The notes below the pieces were generated by a model. It worked only from the letters and a program-made list of their open reading frames with translations, did not search any database and was not told the origin of the DNA. A stretch of 64,000 nucleotides of DNA. Origin: Candidatus Poribacteria bacterium. Its GTDB lineage: Bacteria; Poribacteria; WGA-4E; PCPOR2b. Both the position numbers and the translations under genes were made by a program. Below, in pieces: positions 1,839-60,213 of this stretch. Every line of letters starts with the position of its first letter. Position 1 is the first letter of the stretch. The DNA is taken from NCBI GenBank assembly GCA_965208675.1, contig OZ242351.1, forward strand, positions 3,168,001 to 3,232,000, read 5' to 3'.

Positions 1839-1969
1839 TGAAAATTTTTCCTATCAAGTCAGGAACAAATGAAAAGTTTGTATGCTTTAGAATGAATCTG
1901 CACACCCTACGGCAATATAGCCGTCAACCTTATGTTTGGGGTTCTCTACACGGCTATCACGCCAAATCT

Positions 1970-2968
1970 TTACCTAATTTTGTTATTTGCTACGTTCTCC
2001 TGCTTCAGCCAACCCCAAGTCAGTGCGTGCTTGCCGGCAGGTGATACGGAGAAAATCGTCACGAATTCAGGGTCGAACCACGCTGCGGCGCGGTTAAAGT
2101 TGCCTATCGTTGGAAGTTCTGTGCGATTTCCTTTTCCATCAGCATCTTGAATGATAATCTTCGCTACGCCGCCCCCGAACGTAGTCGTAGCAAGTTCTTT
2201 GCCGTCCGGTGACCACTCAGGGTCTCTACAACATCCGATTTTTATCTGGTTTTTGCCATTTGCGCCCATTACAAAGATTTCAGCATGCCCGGAGCGTTCC
2301 GTAATCCAAGCGATTTTTTCATTGTCCGGCGACCATGCAGGGTGCGAGTCCTTGGCGCGGTGATTGGTCAGATTTTGCAGGTTTTCTCCGTTCGCGTCCA
2401 TGAGGTGGAGGTCTCCAATCGTCTTACCCCGTTTCGAAGAGAAGGCAATCTTTCGAGCGTCCCGCGACCACGCGGGTTGGATGTCGGCGGCGGGGTCGTT
2501 AGTAATATTCTCAATGATTTGCCCTGCCGCGTTCATCGTATAGATTTCAAAGTTCCCGTCGCGGTTGGACGTGAAGGCTAGCTTCCCACCCCCAGGATGC
2601 CAGTTCGGCCAACTGTCTTCTGCGGCATCGTCGGTGAGCCGTTTCAACTTCATTCCATCCCCATTCACTACGTAGACATCAATGTTCTTCTTCGATTCAG
2701 TGTGGAATGCCAACCTTGTGCCGTCCGGCGACCACTCCAATCCCAACGGTTGCCCGTTAACCAACAGCAGTGCACGCTGATTGTTGCCGTCGGGGTTCAT
2801 CAACCAGATATTGCCCTCGTCCGCGTTAGTAGAGACCGCGAGGGTTGGATTGTTCGGTGCTTTCGACTCGGCGCGTGACAGGAACATCGCACCCATTAGT
2901 AAAAGCACAACTAAAATAATTCTCAAGATTTCTGTTTTCTGATTTTGGATAGTCCTCACCCCCTGCAA
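1970..2968 (-). CDS. Secreted TolB-like PD40 beta-propeller, paralog 1
   Basis: Signal peptide, WSPDG/PD40 blades (SNRDGNFEIY), C-terminal VSPAGKHALTWGWLK. No TolB N-terminal domain. Confidence 0.85.
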   Translation of the reverse strand: MQGVRTIQNQKTEILRIILVVLLLMGAMFLSRAESKAPNNPTLAVSTNADEGNIWLMNPDGNNQRALLLVNGQPLGLEWSPDGTRLAFHTESKKNIDVYVVNGDGMKLKRLTDDAAEDSWPNWHPGGGKLAFTSNRDGNFEIYTMNAAGQIIENITNDPAADIQPAWSRDARKIAFSSKRGKTIGDLHLMDANGENLQNLTNHRAKDSHPAWSPDNEKIAWITERSGHAEIFVMGANGKNQIKIGCCRDPEWSPDGKELATTTFGGGVAKIIIQDADGKGNRTELPTIGNFNRAAAWFDPEFVTIFSVSPAGKHALTWGWLKQENVANNKIR

Positions 2969-3030
2969 TACCAGAGATAAGATAGTTCTCTCAAATCAAA
3001 TCGGGCGGCAATTGAAAAATTTGGTATAGT

Positions 3031-4008
3031 TTATTGTTCGTTACGCGCCGCCTTCTTCAACCAGCCCCAAGTCAGTGCCTGCTTCTCGGCAGGCGACACT
3101 GAGAATACCGTCACAAAATCAGGGTCAAACCACGCGGGCGCACGGCTGACATTGCTGACCCCCGGTAGTTCCAGCTGAGGTCCTTTTCCGTCCGCATCCC
3201 GGATGAAAATCCTTGAACCGCCCCCAAATGTTGCGCCGGCAATCTTTTCTCCGTCCGGAGACCACTCCGGATCGCGGCAACACGCGATGGGTACCTGATT
3301 TGCACCATCGGCAGCATCCATCGCATAGATGTTGGCAGCACCCGTTCGGTTCGAGATAAACGCAATCTTCCGCTCATCCGGCGACCATGCGGCATGGGTA
3401 TTCGCCGAGCGGTTATTCGTCAGATTTCGCAGGTTCTCCCCGTTCGGGTCCATGACGTAAATGTCCCCAAGCGACCTCCCTCGTTTCGACGTAAACGCCA
3501 TTTTTCGTCCGTCCGGCGACCACGCGGGATCGGTGTCCTTTACCGCGTCGTTCGTAAGGTTCTTCAGCGCCTGGCCCCCATCCGTCATCGTGTAGATTTC
3601 AAAGTTCCCGTCCCGATTGGTCGTGAAGGCAATCGTTTTGCCGCTGGGATGCCAGCTCGGTCGGCTGTCTTCCGCTGCATCGTCGGTGAGCCGTTTAAGG
3701 TTTTTCCCGTTGGCATTCACCACATAGACATCAATGTTCTTCCTCACTTCGGTATGGAACGCAAGCCTCCGCCCGTCTGGCGACCATTCCAGACCCAACG
3801 GCAGTGGATTAGCGTCAATCGCCAACAGCGGGCGGACATCTTCACCTTCCAAATTCATCAACCAGATAATCGCACCCTCGCCTACACTGGAAACCGCAAG
3901 CGTTGGCTTCTTAGGCGCTTGCGCATGGACGTGCGTCAAAAGTACGCCATTGATAAAAAGAAACACGACAACAGACACAACACAACGCCGAATTTTCTGA
4001 ATTTGCAT
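3031..4008 (-). CDS. Secreted TolB-like PD40 beta-propeller, paralog 2
   Basis: Signal peptide ending VHA-Q, PD40 repeats, C-terminal VSPAEKQALTWGWLK. Confidence 0.85.
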   Translation of the reverse strand: MQIQKIRRCVVSVVVFLFINGVLLTHVHAQAPKKPTLAVSSVGEGAIIWLMNLEGEDVRPLLAIDANPLPLGLEWSPDGRRLAFHTEVRKNIDVYVVNANGKNLKRLTDDAAEDSRPSWHPSGKTIAFTTNRDGNFEIYTMTDGGQALKNLTNDAVKDTDPAWSPDGRKMAFTSKRGRSLGDIYVMDPNGENLRNLTNNRSANTHAAWSPDERKIAFISNRTGAANIYAMDAADGANQVPIACCRDPEWSPDGEKIAGATFGGGSRIFIRDADGKGPQLELPGVSNVSRAPAWFDPDFVTVFSVSPAEKQALTWGWLKKAARNEQ

Positions 4009-4075
4009 AAATTGCTACCTCACTGTTTGATATCCGGAATCTGACTGATGGTTAAAACTCCAATACCAAAGCGTA

Positions 4076-5149
4076 TTAGTCATCGCCGCCAACCTGCTTA
4101 ATCCAACCCCACGTCAATACTTGTTTGTCAACAGGTGCAACCGAGAATTCAACCACCAACTTCGGATCGAACCACGCCGGCGAGCGGTTCTGCAAGCCGA
4201 TGTTTGGGAGATCATTCCAGTTCAGATTGCCGGTCGCCGGGTGGATACGGATGTTCGCTTGGCCGCCGCCGAGCGCCGCCGCGGCAATGTGTTTCCCGTC
4301 CGGCGACCAACTCGCCTCCCTGTTGGGGAAACCGCCCGCCTTTGGGTCTTGAAGATCGCTAATCTTCAATAAATTCCCGCCGTCCGCGGCATCCATCGTC
4401 CAAATCTCATCATTGCCGCTTCGACGAGACGTCCAAGCAATCATTTTGTTGTCCCACGACCATGTCGGTTGGATATCTTCGCCTCGAACATCAGTAAGGT
4501 TCTGCAGAATCTCCCCTTCACCATCCATAAGGTAGATGTCTCCAAGGGATTTGCCTCGTTTCGATGCAAAGGCAATCTGCCGCCCGTTTCGCGACCATGC
4601 CGGATACTGGTCCTTGGCTGGATCGTTCGTCAGGTTACCCAAAATGTCACCCCGCATATTCATCGTGTAAATCTCATAATTCCCGTCACGATTAGTTTGG
4701 AATGCCATCCTTAGGCCGCTAGGATGCCAGGTGGGCCAACTGTCTTCCGCCTCGTGGTTGGTAAGTTTTTCGAGATTTTCGCCGTTGGCATCCACCACGT
4801 AGATATCAATGTTGTCTTCCAATTTGGTGAAGAACGCAATTTGGTTGCCGTCCGGAGACCATTGCAAGCCCGAGGGTATCGGGTCTCCGTCAATTTCTAG
4901 AATGAATCGCGGGTTCTTCCCATCGGGGCTGCGCATCCATATACCTACCCCTTCACCCGCATTAGTCGTGAGTGCGATGACTTCCCTCGCGGGCGCTTTT
5001 GCACCCGCCCCCACAACTAATACTGCGTTGCTCAATACCAACATCCCCAAGAACCAGACACACATCAACACTATTCGATTTTGCACCGTAATCACCTCAT
5101 TGATTAAAGGTTTATGCGTAACCGCGTTTAAGAATGTGAGGTCTCGCAT
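4076..5149 (-). CDS. Secreted TolB-like PD40 beta-propeller, paralog 3 (true start probably ~20 codons downstream)
   Basis: PD40 repeats, C-terminal VAPVDKQVLTWGWIK; a GAGGTG SD-like sequence precedes the VQNRIV codons. Confidence 0.85.
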   Translation of the reverse strand: MRDLTFLNAVTHKPLINEVITVQNRIVLMCVWFLGMLVLSNAVLVVGAGAKAPAREVIALTTNAGEGVGIWMRSPDGKNPRFILEIDGDPIPSGLQWSPDGNQIAFFTKLEDNIDIYVVDANGENLEKLTNHEAEDSWPTWHPSGLRMAFQTNRDGNYEIYTMNMRGDILGNLTNDPAKDQYPAWSRNGRQIAFASKRGKSLGDIYLMDGEGEILQNLTDVRGEDIQPTWSWDNKMIAWTSRRSGNDEIWTMDAADGGNLLKISDLQDPKAGGFPNREASWSPDGKHIAAAALGGGQANIRIHPATGNLNWNDLPNIGLQNRSPAWFDPKLVVEFSVAPVDKQVLTWGWIKQVGGDD

Positions 5150-5163
5150 ATCAATCTAGCAAG

Positions 5164-6165
5164 TCAATCATCTTGCACTATTTGCTTTACCCATCCCCAC
5201 GTCATAGGACGTTTCTCAACTGGCGTAACGGAGAACTCAACTACGAATTTCGGATCGAACCACGCTGGGGAACGGTCTTGGGCGCCGATTGCCTGCAGGT
5301 CCATCCAATTCAGGTTGCCCTTTGCCGAATGCACGCGAATAGTCGCGCTGCCGCCCCCAAGTGCCGCCGAAGCGATGAGTTTGCCATCCGGCGACCAAGA
5401 GGGTTCCCGAACTCGAAAGCCTGCCGCTTTAGGATCTTGGAGATCGCTAATCTGCCTGACATTCGCGCCGTCCGCGTCCATCGCCCAAATTTCTGCTGCG
5501 CCATTTCGAGCAGAGGTCCACGCAATCTGCTTGCCGTCCCAAGACCACCTAGGTTGAAAATCTTCACCCCGAACGTTCGTGAGATTTTCCAAAATCTCGC
5601 CATTCTGGCTCATCAGGAATATATCTCCCAGCGTCTTCCCGCGTTTGGAGGCAAACGCTATCCGTCGAGCGTCCGGCGACCACGCCGGATAGTGGTCCTT
5701 GACCGCGTCATTGGTCAGGTTGTCCAGAATATCCCCGCGTGACGTCATTGTGTAAATCTCAAGATTGCCGTCACGGTTGGTGTGGAAAGCTATCTTCTGC
5801 CCGCTGGGGTGCCATGTGGGCCAGCTATCCTCTGACTCGTGTTCCGTGAGCCTACGAAGGTTTTCTCCGTCGCCGTTCACCACGTAAATATCGACGTTTT
5901 TATCTAACTCCGTGTGAAATGCTATCTTTGTTCCGTCCGGAGACCACACCAAACCCGACGGCATAGGATTACCGTCAATCGGCAAAATGAGGCGTGCGCC
6001 ACCTCCGTTATCATTCATCAGCCAGATGCCCACGTCGCCATCACTTGCAACCGCAATGGTCGACCGATTCGGCGCTTGTGCTTCTACGTCCATCGCAAGC
6101 ACCGTGCTGTACAAGAGCGGAAGACAGAAACAAATTACACGTGATAATGTTTTTTGTATTTCCAT
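5164..6165 (-). CDS. Secreted TolB-like PD40 beta-propeller, paralog 4
   Basis: GGAGG SD upstream, signal peptide ending VEA-Q, PD40 repeats, C-terminal VTPVEKRPMTWGWVK. Confidence 0.85.
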   Translation of the reverse strand: MEIQKTLSRVICFCLPLLYSTVLAMDVEAQAPNRSTIAVASDGDVGIWLMNDNGGGARLILPIDGNPMPSGLVWSPDGTKIAFHTELDKNVDIYVVNGDGENLRRLTEHESEDSWPTWHPSGQKIAFHTNRDGNLEIYTMTSRGDILDNLTNDAVKDHYPAWSPDARRIAFASKRGKTLGDIFLMSQNGEILENLTNVRGEDFQPRWSWDGKQIAWTSARNGAAEIWAMDADGANVRQISDLQDPKAAGFRVREPSWSPDGKLIASAALGGGSATIRVHSAKGNLNWMDLQAIGAQDRSPAWFDPKFVVEFSVTPVEKRPMTWGWVKQIVQDD

Positions 6166-6291
6166 AGCTTACAACCTCCCAACGAAAGCGTGCGTGTACG
6201 AAAGAATATGTGATGCCGCTATCTCTACACCGCTGCCCATTATATCCAAATCGGTTTTCAACTGAAAATGAATATAGGTAGTTAGTATTCG

Positions 6292-7362
6292 TTATCGTCC
6301 TGCCAGCTTCAACCAGCCCCAGGTCAAAGGCTGTTTCTCCGCCGCGGAGACGGAAAATGCACCCACGAAGGCCGGATCAAACCAAGCCGGCGACCTATCT
6401 TCACCGCCCACCGCCGGTAAATCTTGCCACTCCAGATTGCCATCCGAAGGATGGATTCGGATGTTAATTACTCCTCCCTGTCCAAACGCCGTCGAGGCAA
6501 TACGTCCGCCGTCAGGCGCCCACGTAACATCCCTATTTCTCACTCCCGGCGCTCTGGGGTCCTGGAGGTCGCTAATCTTCATCGGATTCGCTCCATCCGC
6601 CTCCATTGACCAAATCTCCCCAGCACCGTTACGGCGAGAGGTCCACGCAATTCGATTCCCGTCCCGCGACCACTTGGGTTGAATATCTTCGCCGCGAACG
6701 TTGGTGAGATTTCGTACGTTCTCACCGCTCGAATCCATCACAAAGATGTCCCCAAGAGTCTTCCCCCGTTTGGAAGCGAAGGCTATCGTTCTACCATCTG
6801 GCGACCACGAGGGGTACTGGTCTTGCACCGAGTCGTTCGTGATATTTTCCAATGCCTCTCCCGCCGATGTCATTGCATAGATTTCAAGGTTCCCATCGCG
6901 TTTCGTGGAAAAGGCAAGCCTTTCCCCTTCCGGGTGCCAAGCCGCCCAGCTATCTTCTCCCGGATGGTCCGTCAGTCTCTTGAGATTTTCCCCGCCGGCG
7001 TCTACAACGTAGACATCAATGTTCCCTTCTAATTCGGCATGGAACGCAATCTGTTTCCCGTTGAATGACCAAGTTAAGCCCGACGGCAGCGAGTCCTCTC
7101 CAACCTCTAAAACCAACCGAGGATTCTCTCCTTCGGGGGTCATAAACCAGATGCCTACCCCTTTCCTCACGTCCGTAGCAAACGCAATTGTCGGCTCGTC
7201 CGGCACCTCAGCCGGCGCGTTCCCGATGAGTATCGCACTCAGTAGTAGTAACAGCCAGACCGAATACACCGCACACATCAAAAATTTCTGAATGCACATC
7301 CTGTGGTCCCTTTTGTGGTATTGAAAATTCGCGGTGTGTGTCAGCGCGTCATTCCGCCGCAC
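6292..7362 (-). CDS. Secreted TolB-like PD40 beta-propeller, paralog 5 (start likely at MCIQKF)
   Basis: PD40 repeats, C-terminal VSAAEKQPLTWGWLK. Confidence 0.85.
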   Translation of the reverse strand: MRRNDALTHTANFQYHKRDHRMCIQKFLMCAVYSVWLLLLLSAILIGNAPAEVPDEPTIAFATDVRKGVGIWFMTPEGENPRLVLEVGEDSLPSGLTWSFNGKQIAFHAELEGNIDVYVVDAGGENLKRLTDHPGEDSWAAWHPEGERLAFSTKRDGNLEIYAMTSAGEALENITNDSVQDQYPSWSPDGRTIAFASKRGKTLGDIFVMDSSGENVRNLTNVRGEDIQPKWSRDGNRIAWTSRRNGAGEIWSMEADGANPMKISDLQDPRAPGVRNRDVTWAPDGGRIASTAFGQGGVINIRIHPSDGNLEWQDLPAVGGEDRSPAWFDPAFVGAFSVSAAEKQPLTWGWLKLAGR

Positions 7363-50106: not shown

Positions 50107-53100
50107 TCACTGAAATTCGCCGCGCACCGTCACTGAACTCGCAATTGATAAGAAATCCCGCCCCTCCTCGACATGGTCGTTGTTATAGCTGAGACCGAGA
50201 TTCAAATTCGCAGTCAGGCGCGTGCTTAGGTTGTACCGCGTTCGTAACGTCGTCTCGTAACGTTCCGATCTCTCCTCCCGATTCTTCCCATAGTTCTCCC
50301 GGCGGATAACCGTAGACAACGTATTCGTGAGATCCAAATCGTGCTTGAGAGGGATTCGCCCCAGAATCGGTATCGGAAGTCCTCCCTCTAAACGAAGCTT
50401 GTAGTCAATGCTGAGATTCGGCGTGATTATCAGCGCCGAACTGTCAATCCCGCCGCCGCGAACCTGGTCTCGCATCGTCATGCGAACACCCAGCGCACCC
50501 CGCGTTGATGCCCCCAGCGACTGGGTCCAACTGACGGACGGTTCTTGGGAGACACTCTCGTTTATCGTCGTATTGATGTTACTCTGATCCCGCTGCGTAT
50601 GCCGGTATCTTAACTGCAAGCTCGAACTGGCGTTAAACAACAGTTTGATGTTGCCTTCGTAGCTTATTGTCAGGTTGTCGGACGAAGTGCTTAAGGATTT
50701 CGTAAAACCCTTGCCGCGGGAGACGTTTGTGCCGAGCGACATCCACGACCATGGATCGACCGAAGTCCGAAATCCATACCGGTTTCTCTGCCGAGATTGG
50801 CTGCGCTCCGGTGTGTCGGCTGGAAGTTCCAGAATATCTCGAATTGAGGTTCCCGGTGCGAGCCGCTGAAGGGAGTCTTGCGTATCAAAACTAACATCAG
50901 CGTTTAACGCAAGACTCTCCATACTTCGACGAAGTAGACCGGATTGCCCATCACCCTGTTTGCCCTGCCTCTCCTTCAGCTTGCGCTCTAGTTCAGCTTT
51001 GTCTCGGGAAATCCAATCTCCTCTTTGGCTCTCTGCCTCTTCGAGCATGTCCATATCAACATCCATACGTTCAAGTCGATCCAGCTCGCGCTGCCGTTTC
51101 TCTTCGAGTTTTATCTCTTCTTCAAAGCTGTCGAGTGTCTCTTGGTTTTTTTCATCCAAAACTTTCGCCTTCGCTGTTCGGTTAGAACTATCTTCCTCCC
51201 TATTCGGTCGGTCGATCCCGTCTCCAATCGTTTCAATATTCGCATCTCGGAACAGCCATCCAAACCATACTCTTGGGCGCATACTAAGGCCAAAGCGGAT
51301 ATTCGCGTTGATTCGGGCGTTCTTCTGATCGCGAAACCAGTCTTCACGTAAACTGATACGGTTGCTGATTGTTGGACGAATGCCAAAAAAATCGCGGTTC
51401 AATCGCGGGTTCAAAGACATCCGATGTTCACGTCCGCCAATGGTAAACTCCGATTTGGTTTCGGGTGACTCAGGCTCAGCCGTCATGGATAGGTTGGTTG
51501 TTACCGGCGTTGTTTGGAACGGTGTTCCAAAACTAGTGGCACCGAACCCGCTTGTACGATTGAGATTATCATCGCGCCTTTCAAGCGTACGGCTAACCTC
51601 GTAGGTCGGATTCAGGCTGAAGCTTGCAACCGGACTGATATTGATTGAGATTGAGCCGCTGTCAACTTTCTCGTCTCGGTTACGTCCGTAACCATAACCA
51701 AAGGATGAAAAACTGCTGCCGCCGGACTCTGTTGCCGTAGATGGATCGACCTCAACGTCTTCGTGTCGGTACTGCACATCAAGCCCGAAGATTTGGCCAA
51801 GTCCGTATTGGAAGGTGGATGTATAGAGATTGCTAACCTCGGTCCCCTGGCGTTCGTTCCAGAAATTCTGTCGATTGTAAGCAAAACCCAAGGCGGGCAC
51901 GTATCGGTGCGGATTAAAGCGGGCGGACACATCGCGGTTATGCGTTTTGCTTTTCCCGCTTTGAAACGTGCTAAACGATCCGCGGCGGCTCTCCGTCTCA
52001 GATTCCTGTTCGCGGATGGAGTAGGAAATTGGCAGCCAGCGGAAAAGATGGAGATCGGCATCTATGTTGTAATCGTTGCTGGTTGTGCTAAACCCTAAAT
52101 CCTGCCTGCGTTGCCGCCCTGTTTGTCCGGATGAACTTTCAAAATCCTTGTCTTGTCTTGCAAATCCGCCGCGAACACTGAGAAAAGGACCAAGTTCTAT
52201 AGACATGTTGGCGCGCCGCGCCCAGCCCGACCGCACGAGTGGATCACTCAAGTGGATTTCGTTAACCCAAACTTCCCCGCCAACCTCATGTTCCGTGTCG
52301 TTGCGAATGCCGACCAAGATACCGCCGATGCTCTTAATTGAAAGTTGAGAACTGTTTGTACCACGGATGACTAACCCGTCCGGATGGCCGTCAGTTTCGT
52401 TTGAATCGACCGGCTCCTCAATCTCCCCTTCAATGGTGTCAAGCGATTCTTCCTCCTGTGCCGCAGGCAGGTTTAAATCTGGGTATTCATTCCGTTTCAC
52501 ATCCTCCAGATCGATTTCAATCAGTTCCCAACCTTCAAAATCAATCACGCGCGTATATTCATAAAAGTCGTTAAGATTCTCAAAGATATTCACCCCTTCC
52601 TCCGGTTCCCGACTCGGTTCATCAAAAGAGCCCGAAGAATAAAAGGACGATCGGTAATTGGTGCGAATGCTCGGCGCCAACCGCATCACAAATGTCGAGT
52701 GGCTCTTGTCCCCGTAAATCCACAGCTTGAGTTTATCATGTTTTGAGAAATCTTGGCCCTCGCCCTGGCGAAGACCCCGCAACTTTTGCGAAGTAACTCC
52801 GAATGAACCCGGAAGTAAATTGTAGGTTAAAGTCAGAGTTTGTTCGCGCTGTTCCTGTTGAAAACCAAAAACACTGCTCGATACAAACGGATGGAGTTTC
52901 TTAAATGCCTTGTTGTCTTTAATCTGGTCGTAGGCATCTTGATAATCATCAAAGTTATAGTTGTCTTTCGTGGCAACAGTAAACACTTCTGCCGTCTCAG
53001 TAACGACGTTTCCCTGCTGAGTGACAACGCCCTGTTGCCATTGGTTTCCTACGAGTTCAATCGAAGCCCACTCCATAGTCCCATTAACAGTGCCGGGGCG

Positions 53101-56100
53101 GTTCTTCCGCAGCCAAAAACGGAGATGTTGCACAAACCCTAAGTTTGGGAGACGGCTACCCGCAGACGCCGCTTCCCGCAGCGGAATGCTCAAGAAGGTC
53201 CAACCGCTCTGGTTACGTTTTTTGACCCACTCTTCCGGAATATCGTTCAGCGGGATGGCAATCTCAAGGTAAGCGTCAATTGTGTCCAGAACCCCGTCGC
53301 CGTTCAAATCTTCAGTATCGAACTCTTTATTGTCGGCGCCAACCCGCCTCGGTTGGAGTGAAGCATCATAATCCCATCCTTCATCTTCGCCGGTGTCGAG
53401 CGATCCGTTCGCACTGAATTTTTGGGATGGCGGCAAATTTTCCAAATCTAAGTCTAGCGTATCAACTTTCCCGTCCCCGTTAGTATCTTCCAACTCCTTC
53501 GGAAGATCCTCTGAATCAAGTCGGTTGTCAAAATCGCTGTCCTCGCTGACAACACCGAGATCTAGATATAACGTAACATCATCATCGCCGCGCACACGCA
53601 ACCAAATTTCCAACGCCTCTCGATCTGAAAAATCAGCCCCCGAGGCTGATAGTCCATACGAAAATCCGCCCCACTCTTCAATGACATCCGTGAAATCATA
53701 CCCGACCTCCATCACAAGACGCTGCTCCGTCGATAGTGCGAACGGGTTTATGGAGGATGCCGGTACGTCACGGTTCCGCATGTAATTGCCGACAGCCTTG
53801 GAATCGTCTTTATCTCTTAGCAGGACGCGAAAGAGCGCGCGATTCTCCGGCGTCAATTCTTCTATGAATGGCGGACTGCAAACGCGCCAACTATGCTTAA
53901 ACGTAGACACGCTTGTCGCCTCTCTCGCGCCTTCCATGCTATCAATTAACGCGACCCCCACGCTGTTTGGGTTGTTATGGGAGAATGCCGTCTCGCCGCT
54001 GAAATCAATCGACAGTGGAAAGTGCTTCACGGTAACGAACGGCATTGGATTGAACAGCCATGCGAGGTTGAAGCTACGCCCGAAACTCGTATTGACGTTG
54101 AACGCTTGCAGACGATTAGGCGCATCGTTCACATCAGGAATACGGCTCGGCTTCTGCCCAGTATTCAGAATATAACCCGTTGACAGGCTAAATCCTTTTC
54201 GGAATACCGGGTTAAAATACGAACTTGCGCCCGTGTTAAGCCGCCGCCGGGAACGTCCGCTCAAGCTTGAGTAATCGCTGCCAAAGCCGCCTCCAAAGCC
54301 GCCGCGCCCGAATTGATTGCCAAAACCGCCAAAGGAGGCTCCCTGCCTAAAGCGATTGCTCTCTTCGCGTCTATCAAGACCGCCGCCTAGCCGCTCAAAT
54401 CGATTAGATTGACCTTCTTCGGCAGGTGTCTTCGACTTGGGGACGTAAGCGTATTCCAACCATACGCCAGCGACGGTTTGCTGCAACGCGCTGCCGAAAG
54501 GCGTGCGCTCAAATTCAACCTCGATTTCATCATATTCATCTAGCTTGGTAAAGAAGCGGAGGCTCCCCACCTCATAAATCATTGTGTAATCAATATCACG
54601 CTGTAGTAGGCGATTGTTAAGGCGCACCTTTTCGCTGCCCGGAATCACAAAGAGACCCACGTTGTAAGTTTCGGATTGGTAGGCGTAGTCGCACACTATT
54701 GTGTACACCTGATCACTGGGACGCGGGTTTTCAAGGTAAATCAGTTCGTTGTTCAGTTGTTCACGGAACGGGTAGTACGGGCTGGCCGGTTCTTCGATTA
54801 CAAACGGCCGCAAACTGGGAAAGATTAAGAGGCCGCGGTCAAAATCAATAAACTCCGGATCGACAACCCCGTCCCCGTTAGTATCTAGTCCAAATATTTG
54901 AATATAAGGAATCGGCCCGTCTGGCGTCTCGAACGCTTCACTGCCGCCCTGCTGCCAAATCGCAATCTGATAATCGCGAGGGTTGATATTTCGGTTGCCG
55001 AGGCTGTACACACGGCGCGCTTCAGTGCCGCGCAAACTTTTTTCTTTGAGGACTACGTAACCAACTTCTTCGCCCTCTTCATCAATCGAACCATCGCCGT
55101 TTTCATCTTCAAAGACATTACCCGGTTTCCCTACAACGCCTCCGCCATCCCCGAGATACTCATAGGCAACGACAATTCGGTAACTTGGTGAAATTTGCGT
55201 TAGGAATTCAATCTCTCCAGTTTCATAATCGATGTTATAGTCCTGGCCCGGGAATTGGAGGTTGAAATATCCCTGCACCGTCCGCTGGCCGCCTTGATTG
55301 TTGCCCGCAACGTTATCATCAATGTAAATTTCTTCGCTCCCCTTTTTTATTGGAGGATAGGAGCCGTGGAGTAGGCCGTCTTCACCCAGTGAAATTAAGT
55401 AGAAACGCTCTTTAACGTAGTTTGCATCGGGAATCTGAACGCCGCCGCCATACCCCGAACCCGCACGCCTTGATTGTCCGCTGAAGCGGCGTGTCTCGGA
55501 TATGCCTTTGCTGCGCGAGCCAAACGCCGTCATTTTGACATCACCCAGCGCCGCGACAGCTTCGAGCCCGAATAAATTCCGGTTGACGTTCAGGAAACGA
55601 GTGTTTGGCAAATTCAGTGTAATGTCGCCAAAAGAGAGAGTTTTGAGGATGCTGTCCTGTCCGCCCTGGTACCAAACCCGAATTTTCTGTTCCTTCGCGC
55701 CGCCGAATCCGCCGCTGTAGCCTCCATAGCCGCCATAACCGCCGCCCAATGCATCACCGGAATCGCTATAATCAACCTCGACGTGTGTATGTTCCCCCAC
55801 TCGACCGTGCAGGCCGACTTGGAGGGTTTGTCGGATAGTCGGTCCGGAGGCGCGGGGTACACCCCCAAAACGGGTCGTTCCAAAACCCCCGCCGAACCCA
55901 CTGCCATAGCCGCCGCCGTAACCGGTACTCCCATAGCCTCCGCCGAATCCACCCCCGAAATCGTCATAGCTGTCGTAGCCGTAAGAAGAGGTCAATCCCA
56001 GATCCAGCCCAGAACCGAAACCGCCCTGGTACCCGCCCCCGAAGCGGTTAATGTCGCCCTGACCGAAGTAGTGCGTATGATTCATTTCAACGGTTACCGA

Positions 56101-56643
56101 TTTGTGTCCTGTAATCTGCAGGGTAGAATTCAGAGGCAGTACCAACCCTTTCTCTTCCTTTCCCGGCTCGTTATCGCGCAGTCGGTACAAATCTCGAGGT
56201 TCAATCGCGAAGGGAGAATCCTTCCACCGTCGCAGCGCCTCAAGGTATGGCGTCACCATCTCTAGGGACGGCTCTTCTTCCGGTGTGGACTCGAGTCTTG
56301 CATCCACTTTCCATGGATCGGCCCATGTTTTGCGCGGGGATTTATACCTTCTGAAAAAATCGAGAGCGGGCGCCGTACTTTCCGACGATGATTCATAATT
56401 CTGCTTCACCGACCCATCAGAATCTTCTTCTCCAAAGGTCTGTGTGGTGTCCTCAGATTCTTCCTCATTGTCCTTTGGCGGCACCGTGCGAAGTTCCAAA
56501 TAACGATGGGTTAAGGCGGCATCTTTGCGGACAGGTTCCGCCTGGACGCGGGTGATAGAAGAGATAACCAAAATCACTCCGGAAGCGATAAGCATGAAGC
56601 GTGGAACCGAACGTTCCGTGATGGGATTTGTTTTAGACTTCAT
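50107..56643 (-). CDS. sprA: SprA-like (T9SS translocon / cell surface protein SprA) outer-membrane beta-barrel
   Basis: Signal peptide; SprA-like blocks GRVGEHTHVEVDY, KIRVWYQG..DSIL.....GDI.L.LP......NLFG, PGSEKV......L.RDIDY...YE.G, GE.A....N..GVALIDSMEG, GEVWVNEI.L.....GWA; C-terminal beta-strands ending GEFQ. Confidence 0.8.
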   Translation of the reverse strand: MKSKTNPITERSVPRFMLIASGVILVISSITRVQAEPVRKDAALTHRYLELRTVPPKDNEEESEDTTQTFGEEDSDGSVKQNYESSSESTAPALDFFRRYKSPRKTWADPWKVDARLESTPEEEPSLEMVTPYLEALRRWKDSPFAIEPRDLYRLRDNEPGKEEKGLVLPLNSTLQITGHKSVTVEMNHTHYFGQGDINRFGGGYQGGFGSGLDLGLTSSYGYDSYDDFGGGFGGGYGSTGYGGGYGSGFGGGFGTTRFGGVPRASGPTIRQTLQVGLHGRVGEHTHVEVDYSDSGDALGGGYGGYGGYSGGFGGAKEQKIRVWYQGGQDSILKTLSFGDITLNLPNTRFLNVNRNLFGLEAVAALGDVKMTAFGSRSKGISETRRFSGQSRRAGSGYGGGVQIPDANYVKERFYLISLGEDGLLHGSYPPIKKGSEEIYIDDNVAGNNQGGQRTVQGYFNLQFPGQDYNIDYETGEIEFLTQISPSYRIVVAYEYLGDGGGVVGKPGNVFEDENGDGSIDEEGEEVGYVVLKEKSLRGTEARRVYSLGNRNINPRDYQIAIWQQGGSEAFETPDGPIPYIQIFGLDTNGDGVVDPEFIDFDRGLLIFPSLRPFVIEEPASPYYPFREQLNNELIYLENPRPSDQVYTIVCDYAYQSETYNVGLFVIPGSEKVRLNNRLLQRDIDYTMIYEVGSLRFFTKLDEYDEIEVEFERTPFGSALQQTVAGVWLEYAYVPKSKTPAEEGQSNRFERLGGGLDRREESNRFRQGASFGGFGNQFGRGGFGGGFGSDYSSLSGRSRRRLNTGASSYFNPVFRKGFSLSTGYILNTGQKPSRIPDVNDAPNRLQAFNVNTSFGRSFNLAWLFNPMPFVTVKHFPLSIDFSGETAFSHNNPNSVGVALIDSMEGAREATSVSTFKHSWRVCSPPFIEELTPENRALFRVLLRDKDDSKAVGNYMRNRDVPASSINPFALSTEQRLVMEVGYDFTDVIEEWGGFSYGLSASGADFSDREALEIWLRVRGDDDVTLYLDLGVVSEDSDFDNRLDSEDLPKELEDTNGDGKVDTLDLDLENLPPSQKFSANGSLDTGEDEGWDYDASLQPRRVGADNKEFDTEDLNGDGVLDTIDAYLEIAIPLNDIPEEWVKKRNQSGWTFLSIPLREAASAGSRLPNLGFVQHLRFWLRKNRPGTVNGTMEWASIELVGNQWQQGVVTQQGNVVTETAEVFTVATKDNYNFDDYQDAYDQIKDNKAFKKLHPFVSSSVFGFQQEQREQTLTLTYNLLPGSFGVTSQKLRGLRQGEGQDFSKHDKLKLWIYGDKSHSTFVMRLAPSIRTNYRSSFYSSGSFDEPSREPEEGVNIFENLNDFYEYTRVIDFEGWELIEIDLEDVKRNEYPDLNLPAAQEEESLDTIEGEIEEPVDSNETDGHPDGLVIRGTNSSQLSIKSIGGILVGIRNDTEHEVGGEVWVNEIHLSDPLVRSGWARRANMSIELGPFLSVRGGFARQDKDFESSSGQTGRQRRQDLGFSTTSNDYNIDADLHLFRWLPISYSIREQESETESRRGSFSTFQSGKSKTHNRDVSARFNPHRYVPALGFAYNRQNFWNERQGTEVSNLYTSTFQYGLGQIFGLDVQYRHEDVEVDPSTATESGGSSFSSFGYGYGRNRDEKVDSGSISINISPVASFSLNPTYEVSRTLERRDDNLNRTSGFGATSFGTPFQTTPVTTNLSMTAEPESPETKSEFTIGGREHRMSLNPRLNRDFFGIRPTISNRISLREDWFRDQKNARINANIRFGLSMRPRVWFGWLFRDANIETIGDGIDRPNREEDSSNRTAKAKVLDEKNQETLDSFEEEIKLEEKRQRELDRLERMDVDMDMLEEAESQRGDWISRDKAELERKLKERQGKQGDGQSGLLRRSMESLALNADVSFDTQDSLQRLAPGTSIRDILELPADTPERSQSRQRNRYGFRTSVDPWSWMSLGTNVSRGKGFTKSLSTSSDNLTISYEGNIKLLFNASSSLQLRYRHTQRDQSNINTTINESVSQEPSVSWTQSLGASTRGALGVRMTMRDQVRGGGIDSSALIITPNLSIDYKLRLEGGLPIPILGRIPLKHDLDLTNTLSTVIRRENYGKNREERSERYETTLRTRYNLSTRLTANLNLGLSYNNDHVEEGRDFLSIASSVTVRGEFQ

Positions 56644-56931
56644 AGAATCTGGGAATGGAACACGTCGTTAGTTTGTAACCACGGTTCTAAATGAATTGAT
56701 AACGATAAGGCTAGGGATTAAACGGGAAAACGAAAAGGCTAGTTTACCGCGGGAATGGAAGATTGGGAGGTGAGTGAGGCAATCTTGCCCTTCTTGATGC
56801 CTTTAAGCGATTATGGTAGAATCCTCACGTGGTTTTTGTGTACAGAATCCGAATCAAGACAAAAGAAAATACATAATCAAGCGAACCATTCCCTCTTGAG
56901 ATCCGCCTAATAGCGTGAAGAGATTTTAATA

Positions 56932-58605
56932 ATGAGTCGAATCCCAGACAGAGAACTGATTAAACGGAGTATTGATGGTGACAGCCAAGCTTTCTCGATC
57001 CTGATAAAACGTGTTGAGACGCCGCTGGTGAAGCTTGTCAAATCCAAAATCCCTGACCCTGCATCTGCCGAGGATGTCCTACAAGAAGTACTTTTGGATG
57101 TGTGGCAAGGTTTAAAGGGACTTCGGGACCCGGACCGGTGGGCTGCATGGGTCATGCAGATTGCTCGAAACCGATGTCATGATTTCTTCCGGTTAGCTCA
57201 GCGTCGAGAGGCGCCCATGGCGAATTGCGATCTTGAACCCATCCTCAATAGACAAAGTCAACACGGTAGCTTTCAGACCGATCTGCTTGATACTGTGCTC
57301 CAAACCCTGTCCCAAGCGCCGCCGGATCATGTCGAAGCCGCTCACCTATTCTATCTTGAAGGATTAACCATCAGACAAATTGCAGTGCAGTTGGGAAAGC
57401 CGGAAGGAACGATCAAGCGATGGCTTTCCCACACTCGTAGTTTTGTTAGGAATCGCCTCGGATTGAGGCAGATGAGAATCGAAAGGAGGAAGACCATGAC
57501 TTCCGCTAGCCCTTTAACCGGCAACTACCCTCAACAGAATACCCTCTGTTTACCGCCCGGCGCTGTCGCCAGGTTCGGCAAAGACGGAAAGGATCTACCA
57601 GTTCAAGACTCTCAAGAGATTAACCGCTGGATTGCCACTTTTTCACGCAATGGGGAGCACCTCGTCGGTCTCGACACAGACTACTCTCTGACGCTGTGGG
57701 ATATTGAAAACGGGGAAAAAATCCGGACACTTGAGCAAGTTACAGGGCATAGTTTGCATGTTAATTTATCCCGAGGGGAAACTGTAGCCTGCTCATCCGA
57801 TGGGCGCTTTCTGGTTATCAGTTTTTTTACAACCGGCGGGCAAGAAACAGTCAGATTGTGGAAGGACGGGACTATCGCGGACTTCACACCGGAACAACCT
57901 GTATTTACTGCGGCGGTATCACCGGATGGTCAACTCATGGCAACTGGCGGCTGGGATAGAACAGTCACACTCTGGAGTGTGGAAACCCAAACCGTCTATC
58001 GAACTCTGAAAGGCCATATAGGCGAAATCTACGTGCTTGCGTTTTCGCCCGACGGAAAATTTCTAGTAAGTGGAGGAGCGGACAATTGGATAGAACATCC
58101 AGAGAGTGTAGCTAGAAACACAGACGGTGAACTTGTGTTTATTATGAAAGAGGGTATATCTCATTTTTTTACCCCTGATGAGAACCATATTGACAAGACC
58201 GCCAGAGTTTGGGAAGTCGCCACGGGCAAAAATATTGCCACGCTCGAAAACCCGTCCCAGGTTAGAGCGGTTGCGTTTTCACCCGATGGACATCATGTCG
58301 CCGCCGCTTCAAATGGACATGTTAATCTGTGGCATACAGGGACATGGCAAAAGACGGCGACATTTGATGTCAGAAAGGTTATGTCTATTGCGTTTTCGCC
58401 GGACGGCTCCCGCCTCGCCACCGGCGGAACTTTGCCGGAGCAAACCATTAGGCTGTGGGATGTAGAAACAGGAAACCTCGTTGCTGAATTTTCAGGACAT
58501 AAGAGCCAAGTTGAATCTCTCGCCTTTTCCCCCGATGGTCGTCTGCTCGCAAGCGGCAGTTTTGACCGCACTATCCTGCTGTGGGATGTCACACTGCACT
58601 CCTAA
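56932..58605 (+). CDS. ECF sigma factor fused to a WD40 beta-propeller
   Basis: AEDVLQEV, W...IARNRC.D, GLTIRQIA..LGKPEGTIK (aa 1-188), then WD40 repeats (GH...V..LAFSPDG..LASGS.D.TI.LWD). Confidence 0.9.
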   Translation: MSRIPDRELIKRSIDGDSQAFSILIKRVETPLVKLVKSKIPDPASAEDVLQEVLLDVWQGLKGLRDPDRWAAWVMQIARNRCHDFFRLAQRREAPMANCDLEPILNRQSQHGSFQTDLLDTVLQTLSQAPPDHVEAAHLFYLEGLTIRQIAVQLGKPEGTIKRWLSHTRSFVRNRLGLRQMRIERRKTMTSASPLTGNYPQQNTLCLPPGAVARFGKDGKDLPVQDSQEINRWIATFSRNGEHLVGLDTDYSLTLWDIENGEKIRTLEQVTGHSLHVNLSRGETVACSSDGRFLVISFFTTGGQETVRLWKDGTIADFTPEQPVFTAAVSPDGQLMATGGWDRTVTLWSVETQTVYRTLKGHIGEIYVLAFSPDGKFLVSGGADNWIEHPESVARNTDGELVFIMKEGISHFFTPDENHIDKTARVWEVATGKNIATLENPSQVRAVAFSPDGHHVAAASNGHVNLWHTGTWQKTATFDVRKVMSIAFSPDGSRLATGGTLPEQTIRLWDVETGNLVAEFSGHKSQVESLAFSPDGRLLASGSFDRTILLWDVTLHS

Positions 58606-58704
58606 CATGGTTAACTTCACGCCTGCCCGGCGCCCAGCCGAGATATGCCAATAGGACGCACCCATTTTTTGGAAAACGGTTTTGCGTGGAAAAACAACCT
58701 CATA

Positions 58705-60213
58705 ATGAGTCGAATCCCAGACAGAGAACTGATTAAACAGAGTATTGATGGTGACAGCCAAGCCTTCTCGACACTGATAAAACGCGTTGAGACGCCGCTG
58801 GTGAAGCTTGTCAAATCCAAAATCCCTGACCCTGCATCTGCCGAGGATATCTTACAAGAAGTACTTTTGGATGTGTGGCAAGGTTTAAAGGGACTTCGGG
58901 ACCCGGACAGGTGGGCTGCATGGGTCATGCAGATTGCTCGAAACCGATGTCATGATTTCTTCCGGTCAGTCCAGCGTCGAGAGGCGCCCATGGCGAATAG
59001 TGAACTTGAACCCATCATCAATAGACGAAGTCAACACGATGGCTTCCAGACCGACCTGCTCAATACCGTGCTCCAAACCCTGTCCCAAGCGCCGTCGAAT
59101 CATGTCGAAGCCGCCCATCTATACTATCTCGAAGGTTTAACCATAAGACAAATTGCGGCACAGCTGGGGAAACCGGAAGGAACAATCAAGCGATGGCTTT
59201 CACACGCCCGTAGTTTTGTCAGAAGCCGCCTAGGACTAAGGCAAATCAGAATCGAAAGGAGGAAGATCATGACTTCCGATACGCACGAATCCGAATATTA
59301 CCAACGTCGAGCGCAACGCGATATCGCCGCCTGTCGCGAAGACGGGGCCGCGTCGCTCAACCTGAAAAATCCCGTTGGATCAAAAGAACTCCCCAGTGAG
59401 GTGTGGACGCTGACTCAGTTGAAAGATCTCTCGCTGTGGTGGAACAAGCTTGAGAACATCTCAGAGGATATCGGGAGATTGAAGCACCTGGAAAGTCTTT
59501 ATGTAGAGAGTGACCAACTCAAACAGTTGCCAAACCAGATTGTGTCCCTGTCACGCCTGAGACATCTGGAAGTTATTGGCAGCCAAATGACTGAACTGCC
59601 GGCGGATTTGGGCCGTCTTAGTGCATTACGGACGATTATTTTCCAGCGCACGCAACTCCAGGAATTGCCCGCCAGCTTTGGCGAATTAAACCGACTTGAA
59701 GTCGCTGAGATGGACGATAACCAGTTTAGAAAGTTACCAGACGATTTGAGCGGATTGACCAATCTCCACGTGTTAACGCTGCAAGGCCACCAGCTTTCGG
59801 TGTTACCCAAAACATTAGGTCAACTCTCCGCTATGGAAGAACTGTATCTTGACTACAACCACTTAGATAGCTTACCCGAGGAAATTTGTAATCTTCGAAA
59901 CCTTGAGACGCTGTCAATAGCGAATAACCAAATCCACTCGCTGCCGCCGTGCATAGGCAATTTTTCCAAGCTACAGTATCTTTTCGTCGAGTCAAATCAG
60001 CTCGCGAATATTCCACGAGAAATTGGGAAACTCACCGAATTACGGGAGTTGGCGTTGAGTAGCAATCAGTTAACTTCCTTACCGAAAGCGCTTGCAAACC
60101 TCCCAAACTTGCAAATTTTAAAACTCCACGACAATCCCCTGCCTGACCAGTTGATTCAGGCAGCGAAAAACGGAATTGATGAGTTCCGCGGGGCGCTAGC
60201 GGCGATCGCTTAA
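58705..60213 (+). CDS. ECF sigma factor fused to a leucine-rich repeat domain
   Basis: Near-identical 188-aa sigma module starting MSRIPDRE at 58705, then about 11 LRRs (LxxLxLxxNxLxxLP..IGxL). Confidence 0.9.
   Translation: MSRIPDRELIKQSIDGDSQAFSTLIKRVETPLVKLVKSKIPDPASAEDILQEVLLDVWQGLKGLRDPDRWAAWVMQIARNRCHDFFRSVQRREAPMANSELEPIINRRSQHDGFQTDLLNTVLQTLSQAPSNHVEAAHLYYLEGLTIRQIAAQLGKPEGTIKRWLSHARSFVRSRLGLRQIRIERRKIMTSDTHESEYYQRRAQRDIAACREDGAASLNLKNPVGSKELPSEVWTLTQLKDLSLWWNKLENISEDIGRLKHLESLYVESDQLKQLPNQIVSLSRLRHLEVIGSQMTELPADLGRLSALRTIIFQRTQLQELPASFGELNRLEVAEMDDNQFRKLPDDLSGLTNLHVLTLQGHQLSVLPKTLGQLSAMEELYLDYNHLDSLPEEICNLRNLETLSIANNQIHSLPPCIGNFSKLQYLFVESNQLANIPREIGKLTELRELALSSNQLTSLPKALANLPNLQILKLHDNPLPDQLIQAAKNGIDEFRGALAAIA

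Follow-up and report, generated by a model that had tools for sequence, protein, structure and literature searches.

How are two neighbouring sigma factor genes controlled that open with a common module and then continue as two entirely different repeat proteins, and how did they come to stand side by side? The pair lies in a stretch of 64,000 nucleotides (nt) of a sponge symbiont, a Candidatus Poribacteria bacterium (GenBank assembly GCA_965208675.1, contig OZ242351.1, positions 3,168,001 to 3,232,000), which corresponds to C1:3168001-3232000 of a single-contig genome of 4.89 Mb and 49% G+C, here called G000. We refer to this whole stretch as the window, and number its positions from 1. Gene A (56932-58605) encodes a 557-residue fusion of an extracytoplasmic function (ECF) sigma factor to WD40 repeats, and gene B (58705-60213) a 502-residue fusion of such a factor to leucine-rich repeats (LRRs); both are on the forward strand, as are all the features of the A-B locus described below unless otherwise stated. 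One Candidatus Poribacteria family has long possessed the sigma-LRR gene, in single copy and under purifying selection. With respect to the control of the pair, we consider it on balance probable that A and B are soluble one-component ECF factors that do without an anti-sigma factor, are autoregulated, and are each kept under control in cis by their own protein-binding repeats.

Architecture of the two genes

The sigma module of each gene comprises residues 1-188 (56932-57495 in A, 58705-59268 in B) and consists of sigma2, a linker and sigma4. Pfam recognizes Sigma70_r2 in both proteins (45.2 bits in A, at residues 24-91, and 46.2 bits in B, with a cut-off of 24 bits) and, in B, Sigma70_r4_2 (35 bits) and Sigma70_ECF as well. 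The NCBIfam sigma70-ECF superfamily model TIGR02937 scores 65.4 bits in A and 72.9 bits in B, both above its cut-off of 42.9 bits, and spans residues 20-176 of the 188-residue module, that is, a minimal two-domain ECF. No match to Sigma70_r3 or Sigma70_r1 is listed for either protein (for A, among the best 25 Pfam families). Judged by these domains and model scores, A and B are assigned to the ECF (group IV) branch of the sigma-70 family.

Beyond the module the two proteins have nothing in common. The extension of A (residues 189-557; 57496-58605) matches WD40 at 1.1e-49, and that of B matches LRR_14, LRR_8 and LRR_4, with twelve 23-residue repeats at residues 214-489 (59344-60171) and a capping helix before them at residues 192-213, as placed by an AlphaFold2 (AF2) model and by the repeat register. 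At the DNA level, alignment shows that the common block extends over 573 nt, from about 3 nt before each ATG (ATAATG) to ...CATGACTTCCG at 57505 and 59278; the likeness breaks off at the joint ATGACTTCCG and there is none on either side of the block. A preliminary description of this DNA, made from the sequence alone, had correctly reported this abrupt end, after which one gene continues as WD40 and the other as LRR. Its characterization of the adjacent sigma modules as near-identical was right about a shared module and generous about the degree: 51 of the 573 nt and 20 of 191 residues differ, with 95.3% identity in nt 1-300 (which a direct-repeat search detects as a 96% direct repeat at a spacing of 1773 nt) and 86.4% in nt 301-573. 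The two proteins agree at every residue from 50 to 87 and have just three conservative changes in residues 139-172, so that the promoter-recognizing parts are almost alike and recognition of the same promoter by both proteins is plausible.

A and B are separated by a 99-nt spacer (58606-58704). Another ATG at 58645, which would give a B protein of 522 residues, was dropped as a start: the 60 nt concerned vary between G000 and the corresponding locus L069 of another genome of the genus, mostly non-synonymously, and a spacer that varies at many positions, several of them non-synonymous, makes this start unlikely.

The same description had stated that neither protein has a transmembrane segment and that no anti-sigma gene is adjacent, and both statements are borne out. 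In a hydropathy test (Kyte-Doolittle mean over 19 residues, threshold 1.6) no hydrophobic segment appears in A or B, with maxima of 0.86 and 0.65, compared with 1.7-2.6 in the tethered paralogues. Pfam identifies the neighbours of the locus as a 2178-residue protein, a Zn-dependent dehydrogenase and a GFO/IDH/MocA oxidoreductase, and there is no anti-sigma gene among them; nor is there one among the five neighbour genes covered at loci L061 and L064 of the sister genus g2 (M14 peptidase, a 484-residue protein, amidase_3, KsgA and MacB/FtsX).

Conservation of the sigma-LRR gene and reality of the tandem

A search of the protein database with the sigma module, which extended the list of copies and partners beyond the pair itself, returned 66 relatives (identified below by P-numbers); close relatives of the locus all come from metagenome-assembled genomes (MAGs) of Candidatus Poribacteria. 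LRR is the partner in 54 relatives, most of them 500-502 residues long, WD40 in four, an unassigned extension of ~260 residues (the E2 type, described with the joint) in seven, and something else in one. Eighteen sigma-LRR proteins align over 502 columns with 59-83% identity, the gaps being limited to one residue at column 226 (11 rows), eight residues in P0031 and the last residue. The module is present at 17 loci of Poribacteria MAGs, in 14 of which sigma and LRR parts are collinear and in one frame. Our survey of the phylum covered 121 genomes with 12 candidates scored per genome, so that its absences are soft; it gave matches in 13 genomes, all belonging to family f1 (12 of the 18 others of this family), and none in the 102 genomes of seven other families. 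Two genomes without a match were inspected, and they have, respectively, a decayed locus (G005) and an orphan promoter (G098).

The ratios of non-synonymous to synonymous substitution rates (dN/dS) among orthologues are 0.10-0.23 for the sigma part, 0.13-0.32 for the LRR and 0.31 for the WD40. More specifically, the comparison of A with its L069 orthologue gives 0.10 for sigma and 0.31 for WD40, that of the sigma part of B with its orthologues covers the range 0.10-0.23, and the modules of A and B compared with each other give 0.17.

Is the tandem itself real? The same A-B arrangement is found in a second chromosome-level MAG (L069), and an independent sponge metagenome (run X6) has a 1804-nt contig, with 94 differences, that bridges 57245-59045 and thus covers the 3' half of the A sigma module, the WD40 part, the spacer and the B sigma module. 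An assembly artefact, one of the two circumstances that the preliminary description had named as fatal to its proposal, is therefore excluded. The other, a stop-codon loss in a single strain, is excluded by the collinear sigma-LRR genes of 14 other species and by the 54 LRR-carrying relatives among the 66. Orthologues of A are P0001, P0002 and the L069 copy, whose sigma modules are 96-98% identical, and the longer P0007 (809 residues); the WD40/LRR pairs P0001/P0004 and P0007/P0010 may represent two further sources of the tandem.

One sigma-LRR orthologue, at L073 (6001-7995), has an interrupted sigma part, found by tblastn as two pieces (6001-6528 and 6872-7056) that imply an insertion or duplication of ~340 nt inside sigma4. 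As for ECF-LRR fusions of independent origin, an exhaustive HMMER search yielded one full-length representative (P0049), the rest being giant LRR proteins, and the ESM Atlas gave scores of 0.75-0.76 only; neither search speaks for presence or absence in other phyla.

A conserved promoter-like block and the proposed mechanism

ECF promoters usually have a GAAC-type -35 element and a CG-rich -10 element ~16-17 nt apart, and ECF genes are usually autoregulated. Sequence conservation reveals just such a layout upstream of gene A: GCGAACC (56881-56887), N16 and CGCCTAATA (56904-56912), the block as a whole (56881-56912) ending 19 nt before the ATG. Besides gene A, 14 sigma-LRR orthologues and the L069 copy of A have it conserved in front of them, and its family form is AGCGAACC(A/T)TT - N - CGCCT(A/T)(A/T)TA, ending ~20 nt before the ATG. 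The paralogue E2 has the core GAACC-N16-CGCCT (GAGAACCTTTT...CGCCTTTATAA), equally far from its start. No second perfect copy of the block at 56881 exists in the 4.89-Mb genome, and the long form occurs exactly once in 17 of 26 genomes of the family. Given the GAAC/CG-rich layout and the usual autoregulation of ECF genes, we infer that the block is an autoregulated promoter of this sigma clade, read by the sigma module itself. There is no such block upstream of B and no terminator-like site was found in the spacer, which makes co-transcription of A and B likely. A sigma-70-type promoter-like site, TTGATG-17-TAGAAT with a TG extension (56794-56822), also lies upstream of A, but the consensus scan gave two sites in the region with 3.3 expected, and by itself it is weak evidence.

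The mechanism that we favour can be outlined as follows. The sigma module of A or B would read the block at 56881-56912 as a positively autoregulated promoter; since the two genes would be co-transcribed, either sigma, once active, would raise the level of both. Each repeat domain would hold its own sigma inactive, or else be needed for its activity, until a protein partner is bound, a form of cis control that has been proposed for the tetratricopeptide repeat (TPR) extension of ECF42. Two different inputs would in this way converge on a single promoter specificity. The preliminary description had likewise supposed that two inputs drive the same promoters; the likeness of the promoter-recognizing residues makes this plausible, with the qualification that B has no family promoter of its own and that the promoter now stands before A.

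Several observations weigh against this mechanism. Only the ECF superfamily model passes its cut-off in the two proteins, and autoregulation, co-transcription and ligand are all things that we infer. There is no recognizable Shine-Dalgarno (SD) sequence before the ATG of B. In the AF2 model of B (18 sequences), the predicted local distance difference test (pLDDT) values of sigma2 are 48-67 and the predicted TM-score (pTM) is 0.62, and we draw from it no conclusion on domain packing. Searches for a regulon were similarly unrewarding: the strict motif gave five matches in G000, including the locus's own promoter, and across the 26 family genomes its frequency was that of the control; the relaxed motif gave 13 matches versus 4 in a reversed-genome control, the extra ones being unconvincing. 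From these motif scans of G000 no target can be named beyond the A-B operon and E2's own promoter. Finally, the locus can be dispensed with and is not stable: each of four genomes of the genus has it in a different state (see below), and one genome of the sister genus g2, G098, has the promoter block but has lost the gene.

The joint between sigma module and sensor

What the preliminary description overlooked is that the joint ATGACTTCCG opens with an in-frame start codon preceded by an SD-like sequence. Alignment shows that in A the SD-like AAGGAGG (57483-57489) is followed after 6 nt by an in-frame ATG (57496-57498) encoding Met189, the whole joint being 57483-57498, and that the same elements recur in B at 59256-59262 and 59269-59271 (joint 59256-59271; again Met189); the similarity of the two genes ends three codons past this ATG. 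AAGGAG and the ATG are invariant in all 17 sequences compared (A, B, the L069 copy of A and 14 orthologues). All 18 aligned sigma-LRR proteins keep Met189 and R185/R186/K187. Arg185 is encoded by AGG in 15 of 15 sequences and codon 184 invariably ends in A, while the AGR codons 173, 179 and 186 vary at their third base, and AGR codons account for 31% of the Arg codons in these genes. At the protein level, pLDDT falls below 50 at residues 184-190 of B, and the joint is thus modelled as a flexible linker.

The joint of A and B is not an isolated case. For a census of fused ECFs, 45 sigma-module matches in G000 were extended to open reading frames (ORFs), 29 of which exceed 300 residues and were counted as fused. 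An SD-like motif lies 4-16 nt before an in-frame ATG at residues 159-211 in 26 of these 29 (for example C1 2678130-2680961, 4148400-4151321, 2756928-2758397 and 1547977-1551663); the three without such a joint are 4158266-4161154, 888509-891532 and 758830-760590. The GGAGG at the joint is read as Arg-Arg in 3 cases, as Glu/Lys-Glu in 12 and as Gly-Gly in 11, and its occurrence in all three frames argues that the nucleotides, not the peptide, are what is kept. Within the fused ORFs 27 of 35 SD-plus-ATG sites are at the joint; the background, counted in G000 ORFs of at least 400 residues, is 287 of 13407 internal ATGs (2.1%). These paralogues form only ~7 subfamilies, and hence 26 of 29 overstates their independence.

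The partner domains in the census are WD40, PD40, sortilin/BNR, CarboxypepD_reg, C-type lectin, M16 peptidase and Reg_prop. One clear membrane helix directly follows the sigma module in 24 of the 29 and E30 is borderline at 1.56, leaving only A, B, E2 and the Reg_prop fusion without a helix. This last one (L050, C1:2536904-2539105) is a 733-residue protein with Reg_prop (two-component regulator propeller) repeats. E2 (L031, C1:512882-514258), a soluble ECF of 458 residues, is the closest paralogue of A and B, with 38% identity in the sigma module. Its extension of ~270 residues matches no Pfam family at E up to 1 and is shared by the ~450-residue relatives P0058 and P0060-P0065; an AF2 model from seven sequences (pLDDT 58.6) presents these C-terminal ~270 residues as all-beta at low confidence. 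The joint of E2 reads AAAAGGAGG-N9-ATG, and its Met190 is invariant in seven of seven relatives.

How might such joints have arisen? In G000 at least 7 of the 15 stand-alone ECF genes are followed, at -11 to +31 nt, by an anti-sigma-like gene with an HxxxCxxC motif and a membrane helix, and stand-alone sigma relatives (40-42% identity) have a stop directly after sigma4. Together with the SD-like GGAGG and in-frame ATG exactly at the joint, this suggests that the fusions arose from operons of a sigma gene and its partner whose intervening stop codon was lost. The ribosome-binding site and start that were kept may still function, so that the sensor would also be made separately; no relevant paper on internal translation in ECF fusions was found, as judged by titles and abstract openings.

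If so, A and B would be two-product operons that have lost the stop between their genes, each giving the fusion plus a free sensor, of 314 residues for the LRR or 369 for the WD40. In trans, the free sensor could bind the sigma module in the manner of an anti-sigma factor, or compete for the ligand, and thereby set the threshold of the switch. This is compatible with the mechanism outlined above, and we regard it as a tentative and rather doubtful possibility. It draws on the invariance of AAGGAG and ATG and the fixed third positions of codons 184 and 185 amid variable AGR neighbours, on the same arrangement at the same place in E2, on the concentration of SD-ATG sites at joints with their GGAGG in three frames, and on two sets of stand-alone genes, the sigma relatives that stop right after sigma4 and the ECF genes of G000 that have anti-sigma genes directly behind them. 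These are sequence arguments, and the 26 cases, coming from ~7 subfamilies, cannot be counted as independent. A leftover of the ancestral operon, or an SD-like pause site, would leave a similar pattern; the basic RRK patch behind sigma4 could be conserved for reasons of its own, and the invariant Arg columns 91 and 163 also have a single codon in 15 of 15 sequences.

A bolder version, which we hold to be rather unlikely, would have the joint as a working internal ribosome-binding site and start, and the fused ECF as a stop-less two-gene operon whose free sensor tunes or antagonizes the tethered sigma-sensor. The SD-ATG would then be a standard seam for swapping sensors (LRR, WD40, the beta domain, membrane sensors), and recurrent gene conversion would keep the twin modules interchangeable. 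Should this be true, the joint would define a modular, self-titrating one-component transcription switch of a kind not described for ECF sigma factors.

The repeat domains as sensors or scaffolds

The LRR of B is predicted with pLDDT >90 at about residues 230-500; in structure it comes nearest to Leptospira LRR proteins, SHOC2 and RSU1, and in the AF2 model the linker and capping helix between sigma module and LRR amount to ~25 residues. A complex prediction for sigma residues 1-186 with LRR residues 189-502 (alignment A2) gave no supported contact, which counts neither way. The LRR positions taken as concave are the most variable (entropy 0.93-1.27, versus 0.07-0.6 for scaffold Leu/Pro and 0.79 for Asn); this is the usual LRR pattern and is not used here as evidence for the type of ligand. 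The preliminary description had likened the pair to an intracellular pattern-recognition receptor with transcriptional output, an analogy for which we find no support: neither Pfam nor NCBIfam gives a match to a NACHT/NB-ARC-type NTPase or an oligomerization domain in A or B, and there is no hypervariable surface.

Two cysteines of B, Cys82 in sigma2 (ARNRC; given at 59175-59177) and Cys210 in the first helix of the extension (AACRED; given at 59332-59334), are invariant in 18 of 18 sigma-LRR proteins, and might connect module and sensor through a redox or metal link. A carries C82 and C99; B has S99 in place of C99.

Instead of sensing, the repeat domains could be scaffolds: they would position the sigma factor or RNA polymerase at some cellular structure, or bring further proteins to the promoter, the activity of the sigma being set solely by transcription of the operon. 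LRR and WD40 are indeed general protein-binding scaffolds, as the matches to SHOC2 and RSU1 recall, the promoter-like block implies transcriptional control, and no docking of the extension on the sigma was obtained. Nevertheless, we think this improbable: the soluble extensions of ECF41, ECF42 and ECF238 are described, in the available passages of PMC8999054, as modulating sigma activity, and a positive feedback loop without input would be bistable with nothing to trigger it.

History of the locus

To place the twin genes in their evolutionary context we compared four members of the genus: G000, G021 (locus L069), G038 (locus L058) and G005 (locus L112). Each has a different state of the locus. 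G038 has the sigma-LRR gene only, between the same flanking genes; in G000 both genes are intact; G021 has both, with an in-frame deletion of sigma residues ~29-127 in the LRR copy; and in G005 there is a remnant of sigma (residues 1-42) with a broken WD40 and no LRR. At the last of these loci (L112, G005 C1:1849000-1856000) the stretch 1716-4785 has the promoter block, sigma residues 1-42, the WD40 of gene A split into ORFs of 139 and 171 residues and, at the place expected for sigma-LRR, a 651-residue WD40 gene. In the sister-genus genome G098, the orphan promoter block (L113, C1:5356000-5361000, at ~1183) is directly followed by amidase_3 and KsgA.

The 160 nt before A have their orthologous counterpart in the sequence that precedes sigma-LRR in L058, L059 and the rest; the 99 nt before B do not. 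The sigma-WD40 gene has thus come to separate the ancestral promoter region from the old gene. The spacer is homologous, until ~8 nt before the ATG of B, to the spacer and 5' end of the 651-residue WD40 gene at the syntenic G005 locus, and the duplicated stretch, from 3 nt before the ATG to the third codon past the joint Met, has been joined in frame to a WD40 gene. LRR is accordingly the ancestral partner, gene B being the ancestral, family-wide form, and WD40 a later, genus-level addition from a large pool of WD40 paralogues. The WD40 part of A has at most 53% identity to the other WD40 matches in G000, and it is shorter than that of P0007 by ~250 residues (one propeller). This WD40 family is a large one, with 198 matches in G000 (A itself included) at E <=1e-10 to the WD40 part of A, mostly in ORFs of ~650-830 residues and in several cases in tandem arrays (e.g. 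C1:4527000-4538700, 3129600-3150200 and 1211000-1218600). The LRR of B, on the other hand, is nearly unique in G000, with one other match at 30% identity.

When did the duplication occur? The synonymous divergence (dS) between the A and B modules is 0.28, and that between species of the genus is 0.21-0.30; the module dS being about equal to species-level divergence, the duplication is estimated to be not very recent. Within the module dS is 0.11 in nt 1-300 and 0.52 in nt 301-573. P0007 (WD40) and P0010 (LRR), apparently from one relative, since the longest contig is equally long in both records, have modules that are 100% identical to each other and 81-85% identical to those of the window; yet the WD40 part of P0007 is orthologous to that of A (74% over 341 residues, with the same joint). 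In a quick tree of sigma modules with Shimodaira-Hasegawa-like approximate likelihood-ratio test (SH-aLRT) support, from which P0056, P0057 and P0059 with their short sigma parts were left out, the WD40-linked modules do not form one clade and the two modules of the window group together (98% SH-aLRT). The identical P0007/P0010 modules, the orthologous WD40 parts, the tree and the uneven dS all point to tandem sigma modules that have been partly homogenized by gene conversion and evolve in concert.

The preliminary description had envisaged a recently duplicated cassette that swaps its sensing domains. Recency does not survive, part of the likeness being due to gene conversion; of the swapping, what holds is that the sensors differ, and what fails is the picture of symmetric partners, LRR having come first. 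It is perhaps tempting to go further and see in the twin a neutral, decaying by-product of rearrangement in a WD40-rich genome, with only the ancestral sigma-LRR gene of any importance, considering the four locus states (two with partner deletions or breaks), the truncated forms P0217 (240 residues, a broken sigma-WD40), P0216 and P0218 (cut sigma-LRR), the missing propeller of A and the ectopic recombination that 198 WD40 matches could drive, but this seems a poor prospect when both frames are intact in G000, dN/dS between G000 and L069 is 0.10 for sigma and 0.31 for WD40, the twin occurs in G000 and L069, in the run X6 contig that reaches from the end of A across the spacer into the start of B, and maybe in two further sources, and gene conversion has kept the modules alike.

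Among the neighbouring genes, the 2178-residue ORF (window 50107-56643, reverse strand) is divergent from gene A and is kept beside the locus within the genus. It has a sub-threshold match to SprA_N (22.9 bits, cut-off 27) and glycine-rich, GGYGG-type stretches of low complexity that show up as short direct repeats in the DNA.

Comparison with known systems

The eukaryote-like repeat proteins of sponge symbionts (LRR, WD40, ankyrin, TPR) are usually discussed as factors of host interaction. A and B contain the same domain classes in the same host lineage; unlike those proteins, however, B has its LRR wired to a cytoplasmic sigma factor. Some of the eukaryote-like repeat domains of these symbionts are therefore parts of cytoplasmic gene regulators and not necessarily directed at the host. 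The locus adds a soluble ECF-LRR family to those described and provides evidence for the concerted evolution of tandem sigma modules. It also amounts to a natural experiment, in which one sigma module is combined with two protein-binding sensors and one promoter, so that the role of the extension becomes directly testable. The joint signature in 26 of 29 fused ECFs suggests, in addition, a route by which such fusions arise and the possibility that two products are made from them.

Among receptors built from similar parts, the nucleotide-binding leucine-rich-repeat (NLR) proteins and the signal transduction ATPases with numerous domains (STAND) differ from A and B in having a central NTPase domain, where A and B join the sigma to the repeats by a linker. 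The sigma/anti-sigma hybrids IutY (Pseudomonas putida, ECF243) and ECF48/52/53, which proteolysis activates, are like A and B single chains of sigma plus sensor, probably derived from a fusion of sigma and partner genes. This tethered type accounts for 25 of the 29 fused ECFs of G000 (24 above 1.6, and E30 at 1.56). They have a membrane helix and A and B have none, and regulated intramembrane proteolysis therefore cannot be the mechanism of A and B.

As regards ECF factors with extensions in general, the consulted portion of PMC8999054 counts 26 such groups, 15 of them unstudied, and states that some extensions arose by fusion with anti-sigma factors. In the ECF41 and ECF238 described there, as in A and B, the extension replaces the anti-sigma factor, and a contact in cis with sigma2/sigma4 or the linker is proposed; their compact ligand-binding domains of ~100-150 residues (SnoaL-like or Cys-rich), which act as conformational switches driven by a small ligand, are nevertheless quite different from the 314-369 residues of protein-binding repeats in A and B. 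A description of an ECF-LRR fusion was not found in the literature, including a word search (LRR, leucine) of the main text of PMC7826278, the supplements lying outside that search. To our knowledge, the twin arrangement with concerted evolution and an SD-ATG seam is likewise undescribed.

Two groups resemble A and B most. ECF57 is rich in Planctomycetes, where excerpts from PMC7826278 give 5.3 copies per genome, and it has WD40-like repeats in its C-terminal extension, for instance in WP_015250107.1 of Singulisphaera acidiphila (PMC8999054, in the passages available). It shares with A the ECF module, the WD40-type repeats and, according to the same passages of PMC8999054, a proposed control through protein interaction. 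The WD40 of A, unlike that of ECF57, is an offshoot of an LRR-fused lineage and not an old WD40 group. ECF57 is also described, in the parts of the literature at hand, with two conserved cysteines that are proposed to link sigma2 and sigma4; the LRR family has one invariant cysteine in the sigma module (C82) and one in the extension (C210). ECF42, exemplified by Sven_0747 of Streptomyces venezuelae, has a TPR extension of ~200 residues, and control by protein interaction is proposed for it in that portion of PMC8999054. As far as these passages go, it is, like A and B, soluble, without a cognate anti-sigma factor and furnished with C-terminal protein-binding solenoid repeats after sigma4. The differences are that its extension is TPR, whereas A and B have WD40 or LRR (12 x 23 residues) with no TPR family listed, and that there is no YCII-type neighbour at the scanned A/B loci, whose range is one Poribacteria family; the two are set apart by description, the A/B sigma module passing the ECF superfamily model only. 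From this comparison, ECF42 comes nearest in mechanism among the described systems, and ECF57 nearest among those with WD40. ECF factors with C-terminal extensions are thus already known, and the soluble sigma-LRR/WD40 twin is a new soluble variant of this one-protein switch.

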